DNA from: Candidatus Vogelbacteria bacterium RIFOXYD1_FULL_44_32
GTDB lineage: Bacteria; Patescibacteriota; Minisyncoccia; Phycocordibacterales; XYD1-FULL-46-19
DNA: 64,000 bases
Assembly (NCBI GenBank): GCA_001823065.1
Contig: MHTJ01000003.1
Location: 253,283 to 317,282 of the forward strand
Direction of reading: 5' to 3'
The notes beneath the pieces are model-generated. The model did not search any database and was not told the DNA's origin. It worked only from the letters and a program-made list of their open reading frames with translations. A program made the position numbers and the translations under genes. This document shows positions 5,211 through 53,004 of the stretch, piece by piece. Position 1 is the first letter of the stretch. Each line of letters starts with the position of its first letter.

Positions 5211-5555
5211 ATGGAACACATTCTTGACGCTAGCAATATTAGTTTAGGTCGAATCGCGAGTTCGGCGGCAGTCCTTTTGCGTGGCAAAAACACCCCGGCC
5301 TTCGAGCGGTACGAAAAACCCACTAATAAAGTCAAAATAATAAATGCCTCCAAAATGACAGTGACGGGGCGTAAAATGTCGGATAAAATTTATCTAACTC
5401 ACAGTGGCTATCCCGGTGGCCAAAAGGCTCGCACCTTGACCCAGGTTATTGCCAAAAAAGGTGTTGACGAGGCGATTCGCCAAGCTATTTATGGTATGTT
5501 GCCAGATAATAAGTTGCGAGCAATTATGATGAAAAATTTAGTTATTACTGAATAA
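5211..5555 (+). CDS. rplM: 50S ribosomal protein L13
   Basis: 114 aa with L13 family similarity. The usual rplM-rpsI pair follows directly after rplQ. Confidence 0.93.
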   Translation: MEHILDASNISLGRIASSAAVLLRGKNTPAFERYEKPTNKVKIINASKMTVTGRKMSDKIYLTHSGYPGGQKARTLTQVIAKKGVDEAIRQAIYGMLPDNKLRAIMMKNLVITE

Positions 5556-9356: not shown

Positions 9357-9455
9357 CCCGCCCTGTTCTGATACTGACTGTCGGTGAACATTTCAAATAA
9401 AATTGCCGATCGCCAGTTGAGAGGAAGATTAAAGTGAGTATCAGAACAGGGCGGG
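9357..9455 (+). repeat. 19-bp perfect inverted repeat (CCCGCCCTGTTCTGATACT ... AGTATCAGAACAGGGCGGG) enclosing 61 nt in the dnaK-dnaJ spacer
   Basis: Read directly from the sequence. Arms at 9357-9375 and 9437-9455. Confidence 0.8.
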
Positions 9456-24851: not shown

Positions 24852-24922
24852 ACCAGCTCGAGCTGGTCTTTAATTTTAATCACCCTTAATTATTGAACAC
24901 CGAGTGTTCAATAATTAAGGGG
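24852..24922. repeat. two consecutive perfect palindromes: GACCAGCTCGAGCTGGTC (24852-24869) and CCCTTAATTATTGAACAC-CGA-GTGTTCAATAATTAAGGG (24884-24922)
   Basis: Read directly from the sequence. The first is followed by TTTAATTTT (terminator-like). The second, with 18-bp arms, sits about 45 bp upstream of the -10 of the M23 peptidase gene. Confidence 0.8.
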
Positions 24923-30067: not shown

Positions 30068-30123
30068 AGTTTAAAATAATTATCTGGTTAATTAGATTAA
30101 GTATACTAAATCCTGTTAAAAAT

Positions 30124-30163
30124 ATAACCCCCGCGGCCTTCGGCCGCGGGGGTTATATTTTTG
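30124..30163. terminator. bidirectional intrinsic terminator ATAACCCCCGCGGCC-TTCG-GGCCGCGGGGGTTAT flanked by A/T runs
   Basis: Lies downstream of rplI (-). Confidence 0.75.
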
Positions 30164-36311: not shown

Positions 36312-36938
36312 ATGGGAGGTAATTCTTTTGACCAATTAGTAGAAATATTTATTCGTTTTCCGGGAATTGGTCCCCGCCAAGCTCGGCGGTTTGTTTATTT
36401 TCTTTTGGCCCTAGACGCTAGTAGCCTACTGCGCCTAACCAATGCCATCAACTCTCTCCGAGAAGAGTCTGCGCGCTGTGAGCGTTGTGGCTACCACTTT
36501 CTCAAAAAAGGAGGTAAGACTAATCTCTGTCAAATTTGCGCTGACCCTCATCGCAATCGGGAACAATTAATGATTGTGGAAAAAGATTTAGATGTCGATA
36601 GCTTTAAAAAAACTGATTCTTACAACGGTCTTTTTTATATTCTAGGTGGGCTTGTTCCTATTTTAGAAAAGGACCCAAATAAAAAAGTTCGATTGGTACC
36701 CCTCCAGAAAATAGTCAAAGAGGAAACAACAAATAGTAAGCTTAAAGAAATTATTATTGCCCTATCGGCCAACCCCGAGGGTGACTACTCCACACAATAT
36801 ATAAAGGAATTACTGGCACCCCTATTGACCAATACTGCCACTAAAATTTCGATCCTTGGTCGGGGGCTCTCGACCGGTACTGAGGTAGAATATTCCGACC
36901 CCGATACCCTGCGTAGCGCTTTAGAAAATAGACATTAA
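36312..36938 (+). CDS. recR: recombination protein RecR
   Basis: 208 aa. HhH FPGIGPRQARRFVYFLL, C4 zinc finger CERCGY...CQIC and a Toprim domain. Confidence 0.92.
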   Translation: MGGNSFDQLVEIFIRFPGIGPRQARRFVYFLLALDASSLLRLTNAINSLREESARCERCGYHFLKKGGKTNLCQICADPHRNREQLMIVEKDLDVDSFKKTDSYNGLFYILGGLVPILEKDPNKKVRLVPLQKIVKEETTNSKLKEIIIALSANPEGDYSTQYIKELLAPLLTNTATKISILGRGLSTGTEVEYSDPDTLRSALENRH

Positions 36939-36941
36939 AAA

Positions 36942-36980
36942 TTAACCCCCGCCGGCGTAAGCCGGCGGGGGTTAATTTTA
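36942..36980. terminator. bidirectional intrinsic terminator TTAACCCCCGCCGGC-GTAA-GCCGGCGGGGGTTAA
   Basis: Lies between convergent recR (+) and rplU (-). Confidence 0.8.
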
Positions 36981-41934: not shown

Positions 41935-43191
41935 ATGCGTGATCGGTTGAAGTTTGACGTCACCAGACTCCCAAACGGCATTACTATCTACGCGATGCCT
42001 TGGGATGTCCCCTTTGCCGACATTCGTTTACTTGTCCCCGTCGGACATATAAACAACGTTGGTAAATATTTACCAGGTTCCGCTCACATGCTGGAACACT
42101 TGGTATTTCAACGTTCCGAGGCATTCCCCAAGCCCAGATCTTTTTCTCAAACAATCGAAATGGATGGGGGCGATGCCAGTGCTGGTACATCATTTTCGGT
42201 CACATCGTATGAAATGACGATTGCTGCCGAAGATGTTGACGAAAAACTTGCTTCTTTTATTGAGCATATCTTCCATCCCGTTATCGTCACCGCCGACATC
42301 ATGCATGAAGTCGGCATCATTAGTAACGAAAGACGGAGAGCAATGTCACCTTGGTACCCCGGTGAAGACAAGACCGAGCAACATTGTCGCCTGTATTGGA
42401 AACGCGACTCAGCCCTTTCTATTCGCCAAAGGTTTGGCGACGATCAGGACTTGGCCTTAATGGGGGAAAAGGATCTCCTGTCCTTGCACCAGAACTATTC
42501 TTCCCCAGACACCGTATTGTTTGTGGGCGGAAATTTCCATTTGGACACGATTGTGCGTGTAATGGAAAAAATCAAAACCACACCCCAACGGTTGGAGGAA
42601 AATTTTGAACACCTAAGCTGGGTCAACCCGGAGTATCACGAGGTGTTATGTGAAGAATCAAATCGGTTTTTTTACCACCTTGGTGGAATTGCCGAACCAT
42701 TCTCACCCTTGAGATTTTTTGGGACAAAATTCTTAGGTACCCTACTGACCAATACCGTACAAGGTACATTGTCAGACTGGCTCCGCCACGAACGGGGCTG
42801 GGTCTACAACATAGGGTTTACTGTCAACCGGTCACCAAAACAACGGGCCAACGACTGGGAACTGTATATCCCCCTCAGTGAGTATGAACAAGTGAAGGTG
42901 GTGAGAGGAGAAATTCATGACCGAATACTGAGGGCGATCTCGGATCGTGATCTAATCAACCGAGAGTTGCACCGACAACTTTCAGCCCAGCTCTTCAGCT
43001 ACCAGACATTGGGTTCGGCGATCGATGAGGGAATTTACAATCTCTTAGCCTTTGGCCAACCAATTTCAGAGACAAAAAAGCAAGACATTCTCTGCCAAGC
43101 GGCCAATTCCGAATTTCTCACAGTATTGTACGAGGAATCCTGGATACCCGGCGCCTCCGGAGAATTTCTGGCCCTGCCGGAAAATGTTTGA
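41935..43191 (+). CDS. M16-family (insulinase/pitrilysin-like) zinc peptidase
   Basis: 418 aa. Inverted zinc motif HxxEH (SAHMLEHLVFQRSE). Confidence 0.8.
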   Translation: MRDRLKFDVTRLPNGITIYAMPWDVPFADIRLLVPVGHINNVGKYLPGSAHMLEHLVFQRSEAFPKPRSFSQTIEMDGGDASAGTSFSVTSYEMTIAAEDVDEKLASFIEHIFHPVIVTADIMHEVGIISNERRRAMSPWYPGEDKTEQHCRLYWKRDSALSIRQRFGDDQDLALMGEKDLLSLHQNYSSPDTVLFVGGNFHLDTIVRVMEKIKTTPQRLEENFEHLSWVNPEYHEVLCEESNRFFYHLGGIAEPFSPLRFFGTKFLGTLLTNTVQGTLSDWLRHERGWVYNIGFTVNRSPKQRANDWELYIPLSEYEQVKVVRGEIHDRILRAISDRDLINRELHRQLSAQLFSYQTLGSAIDEGIYNLLAFGQPISETKKQDILCQAANSEFLTVLYEESWIPGASGEFLALPENV

Positions 43192-43200
43192 TCCACAAGT

Positions 43201-43238
43201 CCCGGGCGCTCCCAAGCGCCCGGGCTAAATTTTTATAT
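43201..43238 (+). terminator. intrinsic terminator CCCGGGCGCT-CCCA-AGCGCCCGGG + AAATTTTTAT
   Basis: Follows the M16 peptidase stop. Confidence 0.7.
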
Positions 43239-43322
43239 TTAATTTTTATTTTTGTCACTATATCCCATCAACAGCGTTCTAAAATAGACGCACAGTCTGG
43301 TTTATCTTATAATCATAAGTAT

Positions 43323-43694
43323 ATGAAAAAACTTCAAATATTTTTAGCCCTTGGTATTACTATTCCATATATATTAGCCTCCCTATATGGATTATATGCC
43401 TACGGAAATGATATGGATCCTGGTGATTGGGATGGTATCGAAATTATAATGTTTCTTATGTTGATTGCTTGGCCACTTATAGCGATTTGCTTCCTCTCTT
43501 TTATCTCTAGAATGATTTATTTGAAAGTAAAACAAAGACCGGTCTGGCCTGAATTTATCTGCTTTACAAAATCACTAATAATATTAGGGGTAATAGCAAT
43601 CGGCCTCTGGAATTTTGCTGGTTATTGTAATAAAAATAAATGTGGTTTTTTACCAACAAGAGAAATTCCTAAAAATTCAATGTACGATAATTAA
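43323..43694 (+). CDS. hypothetical membrane protein, AT-rich (about 33% GC)
   Basis: Start at MKKLQIFLALGITIPYIL. Three TM helices and a Cys-rich C-terminus. Confidence 0.45.
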   Translation: MKKLQIFLALGITIPYILASLYGLYAYGNDMDPGDWDGIEIIMFLMLIAWPLIAICFLSFISRMIYLKVKQRPVWPEFICFTKSLIILGVIAIGLWNFAGYCNKNKCGFLPTREIPKNSMYDN

Positions 43695-43716
43695 CTTTTC
43701 CCCGCCTCTCTCTTTG

Positions 43717-43973
43717 GCGCTAATCCAGAAAATTTTGATTATTGCGAGAAGGATAGTAAAAATTAATGAGCCAAGTCGAAAAATTAAACTGTTTGACCCT
43801 GTGGAATAAAAACTTTAGATTTTAGAGAAATAACCTATCACAACACCTATTTTTTTAGTTTGTATTACTTTCAACTTACCTATTCCACGGGGGAGTTTTT
43901 AATTTTTCGCAAACGAGGTGAATATAATTTTCCTAGACTGAAGCATACTAATCAAAATTTTCTGGATTAGCGC
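43717..43973. mobile_element. MITE-like element: 257 bp bounded by perfect 25-bp terminal inverted repeats (GCGCTAATCCAGAAAATTTTGATTA / TAATCAAAATTTTCTGGATTAGCGC), no ORF inside
   Basis: Read directly from the sequence. The right repeat overlaps the murF stop codon (43967-43969). No clear target-site duplication. Confidence 0.55.
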
Positions 43974-45280
43974 TTCAGCCACTCCTCTTCTTGCCGGCAC
44001 AACAGCTCCTCGGCTCTAAGCGGCTCGGCCATTATTTCCACCACCGCTTTTTCCATCCGCATCCCCTGCGACCCTTTTATTAGCACCACATCCCCGGCTT
44101 CAATTATTTTATCCAGCGCCTCACCAGCCTCGCTCGAATTATCAAAATGTTTGATAGCCTCTTCGGCCAAACCTATTTCTCTGGCTTTTTCTTCTATAAA
44201 TTTTGAGCGCAAGCCAACCGTCAGCAACATATCACAATTTTTCGCAACTAGCTCCCCGGCCGCGCGGTGAGCCTCGATCGTATGTTCCCCCAGCTCGAGC
44301 ATATCGCCCAGCACCGCAATTTTTCGGCCCGTAGACTTGATTCCCCCAACTGTAAGCAGAGCAGCCTCGAGCGCGGCTGGCGACGAATTGTAGGTATCAT
44401 CGAGAATAACTGAATTTTTGACTCCCGCCAAAAGGCGCAAGCGCCCCGGTGGAGTTTCGTGTAAATTTTGAATGGTTTCAGCGACCACCACAATATTTAA
44501 ACCCTCGGCGATAGCCACGGCAATGGCGCCTAAAACCGAATATATTTGATGCTTGCCTAATACGCCCCTCACTCTAATCGGGATAATTTGCCCTCGATAA
44601 TCGACCTTAAATGACAACCCGATTGGTAAATCTAGGCCATCTTTATTTTCATACAAAATTTGGGCATTAGATGCTCTAAGGTCGGCCGGCTCATTAAAAC
44701 CATAAGTAATTTTAGCGTGGGGTAAAATACTGATTTTGTCATGCAAAGTAGTATCATCGGAATTGTAAATAATATAGCCATCTTTCCTCACCCCTTGCGC
44801 GAGTGCTATTTTTTCCCTGACCACAGCTTCCCGGTCAGAAAAGAACTCAATATGAGCGGGAATATTAGGTAAGCGGGTCAACACCCCAATATCGGGCTTT
44901 AGCCATTTGGTCATTTTCCGGATATCCCCCGGTCGGTCGGCCCCCACTTCTAGTACCAGCCGTTCGGGGTAAAGGTCATGTTTTAGGCCCTCCAGAGCCC
45001 CTAGAACAATGATTTTCAGCCACCCTAGAGGATTTAGCCAGGCCGATTTTAGACCTAGGATCGTCAGGGGTATACCCATTTCACTGTTATAGCTTTTTTG
45101 GCTTTTACGAGTCCGGAAATGCCCCGCGAGAACGGTAAAAATAGCATCCTTGGTCGAGGTTTTGCCCACACTACCAGTAATGGCAATAATTTTAGGCCGA
45201 TTCTTTTTCAGCACTAAAATCGACTCCTTAATTAGAATCGCCGAAATAATTTGTTTAAAAATATCCTTGACAGCTGACAT
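43967..45280 (-). CDS. murF: UDP-N-acetylmuramoyl-tripeptide--D-alanyl-D-alanine ligase
   Basis: 437 aa. Mur ligase P-loop ITGSVGKTSTKDAI and MurF-like DDTYNSSPAALEAAL. It is the last gene of a minus-strand mraZ-rsmH-ftsL-ftsI-murF array. Confidence 0.85.
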   Translation of the reverse strand: MSAVKDIFKQIISAILIKESILVLKKNRPKIIAITGSVGKTSTKDAIFTVLAGHFRTRKSQKSYNSEMGIPLTILGLKSAWLNPLGWLKIIVLGALEGLKHDLYPERLVLEVGADRPGDIRKMTKWLKPDIGVLTRLPNIPAHIEFFSDREAVVREKIALAQGVRKDGYIIYNSDDTTLHDKISILPHAKITYGFNEPADLRASNAQILYENKDGLDLPIGLSFKVDYRGQIIPIRVRGVLGKHQIYSVLGAIAVAIAEGLNIVVVAETIQNLHETPPGRLRLLAGVKNSVILDDTYNSSPAALEAALLTVGGIKSTGRKIAVLGDMLELGEHTIEAHRAAGELVAKNCDMLLTVGLRSKFIEEKAREIGLAEEAIKHFDNSSEAGEALDKIIEAGDVVLIKGSQGMRMEKAVVEIMAEPLRAEELLCRQEEEWLKR

Positions 45281-48775: not shown

Positions 48776-48841
48776 GTAGTGAATTTTGACCTCGCTGGAC
48801 TGTGAATTCAGCGCGCTAAGCGCAAGGTCAAAATTCACTAC
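48776..48841. repeat. 17-bp perfect inverted repeat (GTAGTGAATTTTGACCT / AGGTCAAAATTCACTAC) with a 32-nt spacer containing the GCGCGCTAAGCGC palindrome
   Basis: Read directly. Located about 100-160 bp upstream of mraZ. Confidence 0.8.
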
Positions 48842-50490: not shown

Positions 50491-51375
50491 CTAAGCAGTT
50501 AATTGTTTATATAATAATTTATCACTTTTTGCAATTTTTAGTGTCACTAGGTCGAATTTCTCGGCTAGACTATCTTGACGGTTATTGAAGCGAAAGGTTA
50601 TTTCATCAATGTAGCGCTGTAAGTGCTTTTTACTCATTGAGTGATAGGTACCGTGATAATTACGCTTAAACAAAGCCCAGAAGCTCTCGATTGAGTTGGT
50701 GTGGACATTGCCACGGACATACTGCTTGCGACTGTGTTTAATTGAATCGTGCTTAAAGCCAATCCGAACTAGTTTACGATAAACACCAGCGTCATCGGTC
50801 ATTAGATAGGCTTTAGGATTAACATTTTTTGTTACCGCATTAAGAACGGTGTGTGTCTGACGGTCTGGGATTTGGAAAGCTCGAAGTTTACCGCCTCGCT
50901 CTGTCATTCCCATAACAGCCGACTTTTTTGAGAAGCCGTGTTTGCGATTATGCTTTCCACCTAGATAGGTTTCGTCAATTTCTACAGTACCAATCAGTTT
51001 ACCTTTATTTTGCTTTAGAGCTTCACGAATACGCATATCCATAAACCAAGCGGTCTTTTGGGTTACGCCGACTTGCTCGGATAAGTAAATTGAAGAAACT
51101 CCCTTTTTAGAAGTTGTCAGAAGATAAATGGCAATAAACCATTTTTGCATCGGGATTTTGCTTTCACCAAAGAGGGTGCCTGTCTTAACAGTGAAGTCTC
51201 GTTTACAGCTATCACAACGAAAGCGTTTACCGTCTTTGAAACGGAAAATCTTATTGTGCTTACAGTGAGGGCAATAGTCCCCACCAGCAAAGCGCACATC
51301 CTCAAAGTGCTTTCGACAGACTTCCTCGTTGTGGAAGTGGGATATAAATTCGGCTAAGGTCTTAAAGTTTGTCAT
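50491..51375 (-). CDS. IS1595-family (ISXO2-like) DDE transposase
   Basis: 294 aa. N-terminal zinc ribbon CPHCKHNKIFRF...FRCDSCKRDF, then IPMQKWFIAIYLLTTSKKGVSSIYLSEQVGVTQKTAWFMDMRIREA and the DDE core (TVEIDETYLGGK...). Confidence 0.92.
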   Translation of the reverse strand: MTNFKTLAEFISHFHNEEVCRKHFEDVRFAGGDYCPHCKHNKIFRFKDGKRFRCDSCKRDFTVKTGTLFGESKIPMQKWFIAIYLLTTSKKGVSSIYLSEQVGVTQKTAWFMDMRIREALKQNKGKLIGTVEIDETYLGGKHNRKHGFSKKSAVMGMTERGGKLRAFQIPDRQTHTVLNAVTKNVNPKAYLMTDDAGVYRKLVRIGFKHDSIKHSRKQYVRGNVHTNSIESFWALFKRNYHGTYHSMSKKHLQRYIDEITFRFNNRQDSLAEKFDLVTLKIAKSDKLLYKQLTA

Positions 51376-51814
51376 ATTTATAGCTTATACCTATTCGATA
51401 GGGTTGTCAAGTTCCTTAAATAAATAGGGGTAGGTTGACAGCTTTTCTAGATTTGGTATTATTTACGGTAGCCTTTCACAATAAGTGGGACTGGTACTCC
51501 CCAATAAGAAGCAAACCAAAGACAGAAACCTGTCTCAAGTGTGGCGTGGGTATCTAAAAGTACCATACGCCTAGTGCGTATTCCCGAAAGGGTTTGCTCA
51601 CCTACGTCACACTTGGAACGGGTTTTTTCTGTAAACGAAAACACCCCCGTGAGGGGGCGGTAAGGTGACTGGAAGCCGGAAACTATCAAAATGGGGATAA
51701 GGGAGAGACAGACTCCCAAAACTTGTACAAGGTCCCAAGTCCTACTGCAGTAGGGCGAACTAAAGCTTCGAAGCGTGTCACTTTAATTCCTCCTCCTTGG
51801 GGGTGTTTTTGTAA

Positions 51815-51900
51815 GCGCCGATGACGAAAATGGTATCCGTCCTCGTTCTGTAAACGAGGGTTCCTCCCAGAACTTACGGGTTCGAATCCCGTTCGACGCA
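51815..51900 (+). tRNA. class II tRNA-like element (long variable arm), possibly a pseudo-tRNA, inside the IS
   Basis: Canonical T-arm ACGGG-TTCGAAT-CCCGT. Acceptor GCGCCGA/TCGACGC has one C-A mismatch. 3-bp D-stem with an 11-nt D-loop as in tRNA-Leu/Ser/Tyr. 17-nt variable arm. The anticodon loop TCTGTAA has C at position 33, so identity is unclear. Confidence 0.3.
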
Positions 51901-52085
51901 CAGAGTATTGACGAAAAGCGTCATCTGTATCCTAGCAGGATATGGGGACTTTGTCAATATTCAAAGTATAACACTTGGGGAGTTGTCCACGCCAACATTT
52001 TTATCAATTTTTCTGTTGATAAGGTGTACAGGGGCTATAATGGCAGCTTTTTATTATGGTAGGCGTAGTATGTTATAGTTAAGAA

Positions 52086-52244
52086 ATGACAATTATACCC
52101 TATATTATATTGGCAGTTTTGCTTTTTGGTTTGTTTAATGCCTACAGAGATTTTAAGAGTCAAATCGGATGGCTACATAGAAGGTTGGAGAAATTGGAGA
52201 AGAAAGTTGGTATTAGTGAGAAGGAAACTCAAGATTTACTCTAG
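52086..52244 (+). CDS. IS-internal small membrane peptide (52 aa)
   Basis: MTIIPYIILAVLLFGLFNAY... N-terminal TM helix and a charged C-terminus. Confidence 0.35.
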   Translation: MTIIPYIILAVLLFGLFNAYRDFKSQIGWLHRRLEKLEKKVGISEKETQDLL

Positions 52245-52293
52245 GGTAACGGATATAAATTTTAGAAAACATTAAAAGGTATAAAAATAAAAA

Positions 52294-52458
52294 ATGACAT
52301 TAATAATTATATTAGCTTTGGCTGTAATAATCTTTGGCCTTTTTGTTATAAGTAAGCAGTTAGGTGATACTTATAAATTACTTGACGGAAAGTTTAATAA
52401 TAATAAAGACGAGTCAGAAATTGTTGGTAAAAAGCATAAAATTGATTTAGAAGCCTAG
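52294..52458 (+). CDS. IS-internal small membrane peptide (54 aa), paralogous in architecture to 52086-52244
   Basis: MTLIIILALAVIIFGLFVIS... Its stop lies inside the right terminal repeat. Confidence 0.35.
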   Translation: MTLIIILALAVIIFGLFVISKQLGDTYKLLDGKFNNNKDESEIVGKKHKIDLEA

Positions 52459-52595
52459 GGTAATTAAGTATATAGTTCCCTTTTAATTTGTATTTTTCCC
52501 AACTTAGAGAGCTTCCTTCCTTTCCGACCACTGTAAAGGGATAGTAAAAATCAAGGGGTGAATAAACAGGCCGGTGGTCAATGATATTTTTTCTA

Positions 52596-52991
52596 CTAAT
52601 ATTTAGCCACCTTAGATTTTAGGTTAAACTGAAATATTATCTCAAATAAAGATAAAGCTATGGGCAGAATAATGTATGGCATCCATAATATATAATATAC
52701 AAAATCAGTTAAAAGTAGATAAATAAGCCAAATTAAATCAATAATAAATAAAATGTTCAATAAATAAGGCACTAGAGCGATATTTAATTTTTTAAAAATA
52801 CATATTGATATGTAAATTCTATTTGCAAACAAAAGAATAAAAACACCTACCCACAAGAAAAAGCGTAGTGGTACCGAATTTATATTAGCAAAACTACTAA
52901 TAAATAAAAATAAAAAAGAAAAATATAAAAAAATGACAAAATAAGCAAGATTAGAAATTATAAGATAATCTTTATTTATTATATTTATCAT
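52596..52991 (-). CDS. hypothetical polytopic membrane protein in an extremely AT-rich (about 22% GC) block
   Basis: 131 aa, very hydrophobic (Ile/Leu/Phe-rich). Lies between the IS and lysS. Confidence 0.4.
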   Translation of the reverse strand: MINIINKDYLIISNLAYFVIFLYFSFLFLFISSFANINSVPLRFFLWVGVFILLFANRIYISICIFKKLNIALVPYLLNILFIIDLIWLIYLLLTDFVYYILWMPYIILPIALSLFEIIFQFNLKSKVAKY

Positions 52992-53004
52992 AAAAATTTA
53001 TTTT

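Follow-up and report, generated by a model that had tools for sequence, protein, structure and literature searches.

A 257-nt palindrome embedding the murF stop codon in a Vogelbacteria genome: mobile element or 3′-end stem-loop?

At the 3′ end of murF in a CPR/Parcubacteria genome, a 257-nt unit is bounded by long inverted repeats, one of which runs into the gene itself. Is this unit a small mobile element that landed beside murF, or a structure that belongs to the locus? We examined this question in a window of 64,000 nt (the whole stretch of DNA analysed), part of a 495-kb scaffold assembled from a Rifle groundwater metagenome; the encoded MurF is the same as in Candidatus Vogelbacteria bacterium RIFOXYD1_FULL_44_32. 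Our preferred answer, to which we assign a probability of roughly one half, is that the unit is a vertically inherited, locus-specific extended stem-loop, probably a 3′-end structure for both convergent transcripts, and not recently mobile. The initial annotation had described a MITE-like element in which a perfect 25-bp inverted repeat surrounds an AT-rich, non-coding core of 207 bp, the right repeat lies over the TAA stop of murF, and the whole sits between convergent genes. Reading of the sequence and a repeat search confirmed this layout: the arms are exact reverse complements (25 nt, 100%, with 207 nt between them), the stop codon at 43967-43969 was located from both the sequence and the ORF, and the + strand ORF ends at 43694 with murF on the - strand. 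The features are as follows, L098 and L100 being two relatives whose murF-downstream regions are compared below.

43201-43250, + strand: intrinsic terminator of the M16-peptidase gene plus AT-rich motif AATTTTTATATTTAATTTTTAT; both conserved beside the L098 and L100 hairpins
43323-43694, + strand: convergent 123-aa ORF without Pfam match; hydrophobic and membrane-like; stop 22 nt before the hairpin
43695-43716, read on the + strand: pyrimidine-rich spacer, CTTTTCCCCGCCTCTCTCTTTG
43717-43741: left, murF-distal arm, GCGCTAATCCAGAAAATTTTGATTA; forms the 25-bp perfect closing helix
43742-43948: AT-rich interior of 207 nt, 31.9% G+C against 43.5% in the window; an imperfect palindrome
43777-43788: conserved inner helix, 5′ half, CGAAAAATTAAA; the L100 version is ..AAAAATGGAA, with the partner changed to compensate
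43787-43797: block AACTGTTTGAC, with the same letters in the homologous L100 hairpin
43797-43808: next helix, 5′ half, CCCTGTGGAATA; pairs with 43881-43893 (TATTCCACGGGGG)
43898-43909: conserved inner helix, 3′ half, TTTAATTTTTCG
43949-43973: right arm of the closing helix; covers the murF stop (43967-43969) and the last sense codon CGC (43970-43972)
43967-45280, - strand: murF (Mur ligase), last gene of an mraZ-rsmH-ftsL-ftsI-murF run; Pfam Mur_ligase_M and Mur_ligase_C

The earlier description of the repeat, its size and its overlap with the stop codon stood, but the self-complementarity of the core had gone unnoticed. The left half of the core aligns to the reverse complement of its right half over ∼85 further positions; the core is itself an imperfect palindrome, and the entire 257-nt unit is therefore one rod-like hairpin. 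The minimum-energy fold of the whole unit has 84 pairs in a single hairpin, and for the 291 nt from 43700 to 43990 the folding energy is -85.4 kcal/mol (z = -7.6). The apical ∼75 nt of the core, which are missing from the L100 element, are the sole part without stable pairing. The closing helix consists of 25 Watson-Crick pairs with zero G-U pairs, so either strand forms it equally well. In the right arm, seven nucleotides come from murF codons and the stop (the 3′ end of the gene reads AAG CGC TAA), and the outer 8 nt of the left arm, GCGCTAAT, are the complement of the last murF codon, the stop and one more base. Within the window, the 25-mer is confined to its two sites even with up to 3 mismatches allowed (expected matches 0.00, from 100 shuffles). 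No gene was called inside the unit in any assembly, and the frame and start codon of its small ORFs are not kept in the L100 element. Four independent assemblies (the ENA scaffold, two Logan runs and one JGI metagenome) show the unit and 400 nt of context with identical sequence and orientation; it is hence not an assembly artefact.

We next describe the flanks of the unit. Close homologues of murF are named UDP-N-acetylmuramoyl-tripeptide--D-alanyl-D-alanine ligase. On the other side, the true start of the 123-aa ORF is likely the ATG at 43323, which lies behind a promoter-like site, and not the TTG at 43188; the 168-aa call from that TTG is probably too long and overlaps the upstream terminator, which the terminator scan located at 43201-43224. 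The ORF sits between the conserved AT-rich motif and the conserved TTAACT spacer in the window only. L098 and L100 lack it in this spacer, which indicates the gain or loss of a small gene. As read directly from the sequences, L098 and L100 also have a similar TTAACT/C+T-rich flank next to their hairpins. Judged from this comparison, 43201-43250 is the far edge of the orthologous intergenic region, and the conservation of this far flank in the window, L098 and L100 argues that the hairpins occupy one orthologous spacer, and against independent insertions.

Regions downstream of murF were retrieved from the nearest relatives and ranked by MurF identity; the homologue search found no strain on record closer than 80% MurF identity. 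In L098 (MurF 80% identical), a 102-nt hairpin with a 20-bp perfect stem (CCCGCAACAAAACACTTTCT...AGAAAGTGTTTTGTTGCGGG) starts directly after the murF stop and is followed by TTTTG. In L100 (71%), two small hairpins precede a 183-nt hairpin closed by AAGATAAATACATC/GATGTATTTATCTT, whose basal stem has 14 perfect pairs plus 6 more. Relatives with MurF identity of 63% or less have short hairpins. Short hairpins of L099, L100, L104 and L105 enclose the murF stop, and in the first three the hairpin reads (A/G)CGCTAaTTT-loop-AAAtTAGCG, its 5′ arm being the last murF codon plus the stop. L105 carries a 19-bp perfect hairpin over the last six murF codons. In L104, the murF stop has changed from TAA to TAG and the partner arm from TTA to CTA. 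With one arm being constrained coding sequence, the other arm must have been shaped to match. The outer 8 pairs, GCGCTAAT/ATTAGCGC, are common to the window and L099, L100 and L104, so about a third of the supposed terminal repeat belongs to the locus and not to an inserted element. As far as these sequences go, a hairpin containing the murF stop codon is a conserved theme of the locus. At the end of murF, ordinary G+C-rich hairpins are found in L102 and L103 (with a partial T-run in L102 only), which marks the position as a 3′-end signal site, and L115 has a plain bidirectional terminator downstream of murF. The initial annotation had offered a non-mobile structural palindrome as its fallback; this is the reading favoured by the long perfect-stem hairpins of the relatives, one of which is homologous to the unit in its interior.

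Several of these relatives showed further features past murF. A ∼60-nt two-hairpin motif, which begins in the last murF codons and reads AACGCTAaTTT-loop-AAAtTAGCGTTCGCCyGAACAaATTTGt-loop-aCAAATtTGTTTTAGGG, was seen at L100:1691-1756, L104:4300-4358 and L099:5309-5366 and 5457-5493. It is 83-85% identical between genomes, where murF third-codon positions are only 41-42% identical; the change of stop codon is compensated in the partner arm, and the motif has no Rfam match. We regard it as a candidate conserved RNA motif, of which the window has only the outer 8 pairs, and as a new RNA motif it may be more promising than the long rod. L099 has a second copy of the final 17 nt of murF (GAGGAGTGGCTAAAACG) ∼75 nt past the stop (L099:5375-5400), again followed by a small hairpin, which suggests a local duplication of a gene-end-plus-hairpin module. 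The L099, L103 and L105 contigs end 44-243 nt past murF, which fits assembly breaks at inverted repeats or hairpins. In L115, a Vogelbacteria relative (MurF 53% identical), a tRNA gene past murF is followed by a ∼1.7-kb unit (L115:4215-5905) with ∼115-bp inverted repeats around a serine-recombinase-like ORF on the minus strand, for which an integrated mobile element is the probable explanation.

The window and L100 hairpins were found to be homologous in both mid-arms, with a global alignment score of 78.5 against 50.0 ± 5.8 for shuffles. Blocks common to both are AACTGTTTGAC, GAGTTTT..ATTTTTCG, ATTTTCCT and GAAGCA. The closing stems and the apical parts are not alignable, and both closing stems pair nonetheless. 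When each minimum-energy fold was mapped on the other sequence, 29 pairs were unchanged, 18 had both bases changed, 12 of these within the closing stem, and 14-17 were broken. The two folds agree column for column in one inner helix of 10 bp, where two double compensatory changes (UU/AA to GG/CC) are seen. Controls in which the partner was slid were slightly worse only (25/37 vs 23/37), owing to A/T runs. Since the column-for-column pairs with both bases changed are only two, both in one helix, and since the sequences number two that are clearly homologous and one that is doubtful, the covariation evidence is thin. These comparisons used the three-sequence alignment A2, with its unreliable L098 row ignored; a two-sequence MAFFT/RNAalifold alignment was discarded because its left arm was misaligned. 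Identity in the interior is 58-62%, modestly above the murF third-codon identity of 48%, and at a third-codon identity this low, neutral arms would have lost their pairing. Both hairpins fold 7-10 standard deviations better than shuffles.

Could the unit instead be a MITE or foldback non-autonomous transposon, which either belongs to a low-copy family or was inserted long ago and kept for its hairpin, in the manner of a Correia/ERIC-like domestication? Of the testable features that define such elements, we found only the inverted repeat and the size, and we consider this reading unlikely. Its appeal is clear, in that a perfect 25-bp terminal inverted repeat bounds a 257-bp, AT-rich, non-coding, intergenic unit. 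Between window and L100, though, the termini are least conserved and the interior most, which is the opposite of what MITE families show, and the outer 8 bp of the arms are a property of the locus, being common to the short stop-codon hairpin of the relatives. The initial annotation had seen no evident target duplication, and this was borne out, as the flanks ...CTCTTTG and TTCAGCC... hold no direct repeat. The sole possible duplication is the palindromic TA/AT inside the arms, which is inseparable from the inverted repeat; an insertion that duplicated TA or AT would leave just this arrangement (GCGC-TA-[ATCCAG...CTGGAT]-TA-GCGC), but a non-palindromic duplication is lacking.

Searches for further copies bear on the same question. 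None was found in the 64-kb window, in 81.6 kb of the source scaffold after both window ends were extended, or in the murF flanks of the relatives. The 21-mer TAATCCAGAAAATTTTGATTA occurred, among GTDB representative genomes (which do not include the source genome), only in 16 Legionellales genomes, once in each, within the coding motif YNPENFD; neither the GCGC prefix nor a partner arm accompanied it. An 18-mer gave 73 single coding or chance matches in viral contigs, the 20-mer GCGCTAATCCAGAAAATTTT gave 3 chance matches without wider similarity in JGI metagenome contigs (from which the source genome is absent), and a degenerate interior motif gave 7 chance coding matches in viral contigs. 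In blastn against phage and plasmid records, nothing matched. In favour of a transposon, the 21-, 18- and 20-mer patterns carried bases of murF and the ancestral short hairpin (TAAT/GCGC), so that copies with different flanks could escape these genome and metagenome scans. Contigs of several relatives also end less than 250 nt past murF, as they do at repeats; against this, short-read contigs and the 495-kb scaffold assemble across the unit.

Also in favour of a transposon, a DDE transposase gene lies 6.5 kb away. It is the single transposase gene of the window, an IS1595-type gene (50491-51375, - strand) with an ISXO2-like DDE domain plus a zinc ribbon. We found no clear terminal repeats for it, and as the source of the arms it was rejected, since the 2.8-kb region around the gene is unlike them. 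The position of the L100 hairpin is the remaining argument for movement. The long hairpin lies inside the stop-codon hairpin in the window and ∼55 nt downstream of the stop-codon hairpin in L100, and this slight shift within the same spacer calls for rearrangement or mobility. Two independent insertions into a ∼300-bp spacer would, however, require a copy number at odds with the single copy in 81.6 kb. L104 was considered as an empty site relative to L100 and rejected, as its downstream sequence aligns to the basal stem region of L100 and is itself structured.

On the preferred reading, a vertically inherited stem-loop at the 3′ ends of both transcripts, transcription of the unit, its mode of action and the upkeep of its perfect stems are what we infer as follows. 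The unit fills the gap between murF, as the last gene of a division/cell-wall operon, and the convergent gene. When transcribed from either strand, it would form a rod ∼110 pairs long with the murF stop codon within the closing helix. Such a rod may hinder read-through into the opposing gene as a roadblock, and may block 3′-to-5′ exonucleases or, with its 25 perfect pairs, offer an RNase III site. The arm sequences would change fast while their self-complementarity is kept, through selection on pairing and possibly because one arm is copied from the other by template switching. This is a known route of mutation at quasi-palindromes, and its putative action on the murF hairpin arms would explain perfect stems that reach into murF codons.

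A function as terminator or insulator, as the initial annotation proposed, is a plausible possibility. At 257 nt and with an AT-rich base, the hairpin fits the canonical intrinsic terminator poorly. Past the closing helix the sequence runs on as TTCAGCC (+ strand) and CAAAGAG (- strand), without a U-tract in either case, and the unit was not picked up by the terminator scan. Bidirectional intrinsic terminators resemble the unit in placing a perfect Watson-Crick hairpin between convergent genes, where both strands fold, but the canonical form has a short G+C-rich stem, a loop of 3-8 nt and a flanking U-tract, whereas the unit is 257 nt long with an AT-rich base, lacks the U-tract and is not called by the scan. 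Other structures of this general kind were seen elsewhere in the window. Two bidirectional terminators of the A-tract/G+C-stem/T-tract type lie at 30118-30162 and 36938-36979, and intergenic hairpins with long perfect stems lie at 9357-9455 (19 bp around 61 nt), at 48776-48841 (17 bp around 32 nt, just upstream of mraZ) and at 24883-24921 (18 bp with a 3-nt loop). Such structures accordingly appear to be common in the genome.

Small palindromic repeats of other bacteria offer a second comparison. Correia repeats are ∼26 bp long and make a TA duplication. The Correia elements of Neisseria (CREE/NEMIS) are, like the unit, small, AT-rich and bounded by inverted repeats, and form a hairpin when co-transcribed. 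RNase III binds and cleaves them, and expression of adjacent genes can change (PMC2649163, PMC10969869). Unlike the unit, they have conserved termini and number more than 100 per genome (PMC10969869); the unit is single in 81.6 kb, has no separable duplication, and is least conserved between species at its termini. The ERIC/IRU, YPAL, RUP and SPRITE repeats lie in transcribed intergenic regions as imperfect palindromes 100-200 bp long, self-complementary over the whole unit as here; ERIC at gene 3′ ends alters mRNA stability (PMC10969869). ERIC-type repeats form multi-copy families with a consensus (30-700 copies), and no family is detectable for the unit. By analogy, the unit might have an effect comparable to that described for Correia and ERIC elements (PMC2649163, PMC10969869). 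With respect to stability, the likeness to lambda sib-type retroregulation and REP-type stabilisers is purely an analogy of mechanism. In those systems, a long 3′ hairpin, when transcribed in full, becomes an RNase III target and so destabilises the message upstream of it, or blocks 3′ exonucleases. Taken in this company, the unit is a further case of the familiar intergenic 3′-end hairpins, in a poorly studied lineage.

An alternative role at the RNA level is that of a stand-alone small RNA on the + strand of the window, antisense to the murF end, for instance a 6S-like or an RNase III-processed rod. We think this rather improbable. In each of the three long hairpins, the more stable fold is that of the strand opposite murF: -46.1 kcal/mol (z = -3.3) vs -35.9 (z = -0.9) for the window core, -73.2 (z = -10) vs -57.4 in L100, and -51.0 vs -48.1 in L098. 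A strand call from G-U counts was rejected as too weak (4 vs 2), this small excess speaks against a small RNA as well, and the perfect Watson-Crick closing stem has no strand bias. The rod shape and size are like those of known regulatory RNAs, and interior blocks are conserved. 6S RNA and other rod-shaped small RNAs share with the unit a length of 180-260 nt, a long imperfect hairpin and a closing stem that varies between species, but the unit has no Rfam match, no evident central bubble and no defined promoter or terminator. With Rfam 15, nothing in the window reached a gathering score, and with a permissive threshold (E up to 10) nothing was better than E = 0.11 locally; in the relatives, there was no match at E ≤0.1. 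A promoter could lie in the conserved AT-rich motif that the L098 and L100 hairpins follow after the neighbour's terminator, but in the window a protein gene separates this motif from the hairpin, and no conserved promoter or terminator surrounds the hairpin.

A bolder version, which we offer as speculation and hold to be of low probability, is that the murF 3′ end in Vogelbacteria and neighbouring Paceibacteria carries an undescribed class of hairpins built around the stop codon. Template copying from arm to arm would maintain their perfect stems, and their role would be that of a regulatory RNA, e.g. an RNase III-controlled 3′ end of the division/cell-wall operon or an antisense small RNA. 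By sequence, the proposed class would range from the strongly conserved 60-nt two-hairpin motif to rods of 100-260 nt, with the window unit as its largest known member. If the favoured stem-loop reading is true, the unit is one more long palindromic 3′-end structure between convergent genes. The locus is of some value there, as transcription termination and RNA processing signals of CPR bacteria are essentially uncharacterised. One orthologous site holds a natural series, from a short stop-codon hairpin to rods of 102, 183 and 257 nt, which may lend itself to studies of the growth and function of such structures. It also carries a caution, in that a MITE cannot be diagnosed from a perfect terminal inverted repeat alone, especially if part of the repeat is the stop codon of the neighbouring gene.

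Two further readings do without a 3′-end RNA. The unit might be a palindrome that works in DNA, as a cruciform or as the binding site of a nucleoid, replication or segregation protein, with no RNA role. The perfect Watson-Crick arms are symmetric between the strands, and long stems that stay perfect across relatives suggest arm-to-arm copying in DNA. We nevertheless judge this very unlikely, given the many interior mismatches and bulges, the different fold energies of the two strands, a position bound to the stop codon of a gene, and the ordinary RNA terminators that hold the same spot in other relatives. It is scarcely credible that the unit is an inverton whose 25-bp repeats are recombination sites and whose 207-bp core flips to change local transcription, for although 25-bp inverted repeats around ∼200 bp fit known inverton geometry and the core holds a weak promoter-like site (43793-43821, 9/12 matches), that site is not kept in L100, both neighbours point inward and leave a flipped promoter no gene to drive, the core is palindromic where invertons have no need to be, the genes examined between 36 and 57 kb include neither an invertase nor a recombinase, and one orientation relative to the flanks was seen in 4/4 assemblies.

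Finally, we note a segment beside the IS1595-type gene. ARAGORN called an 87-nt tRNA-Thr at 51815-51901, which the Rfam tRNA model does not report, and a 26-nt imperfect inverted repeat (51526-51551/51600-51625) lies just upstream of this call. Over 52001-53000, G+C falls to 27%. The stretches 51459-51901 and 52001-53000 may be a foreign or degraded segment beside the transposase gene.
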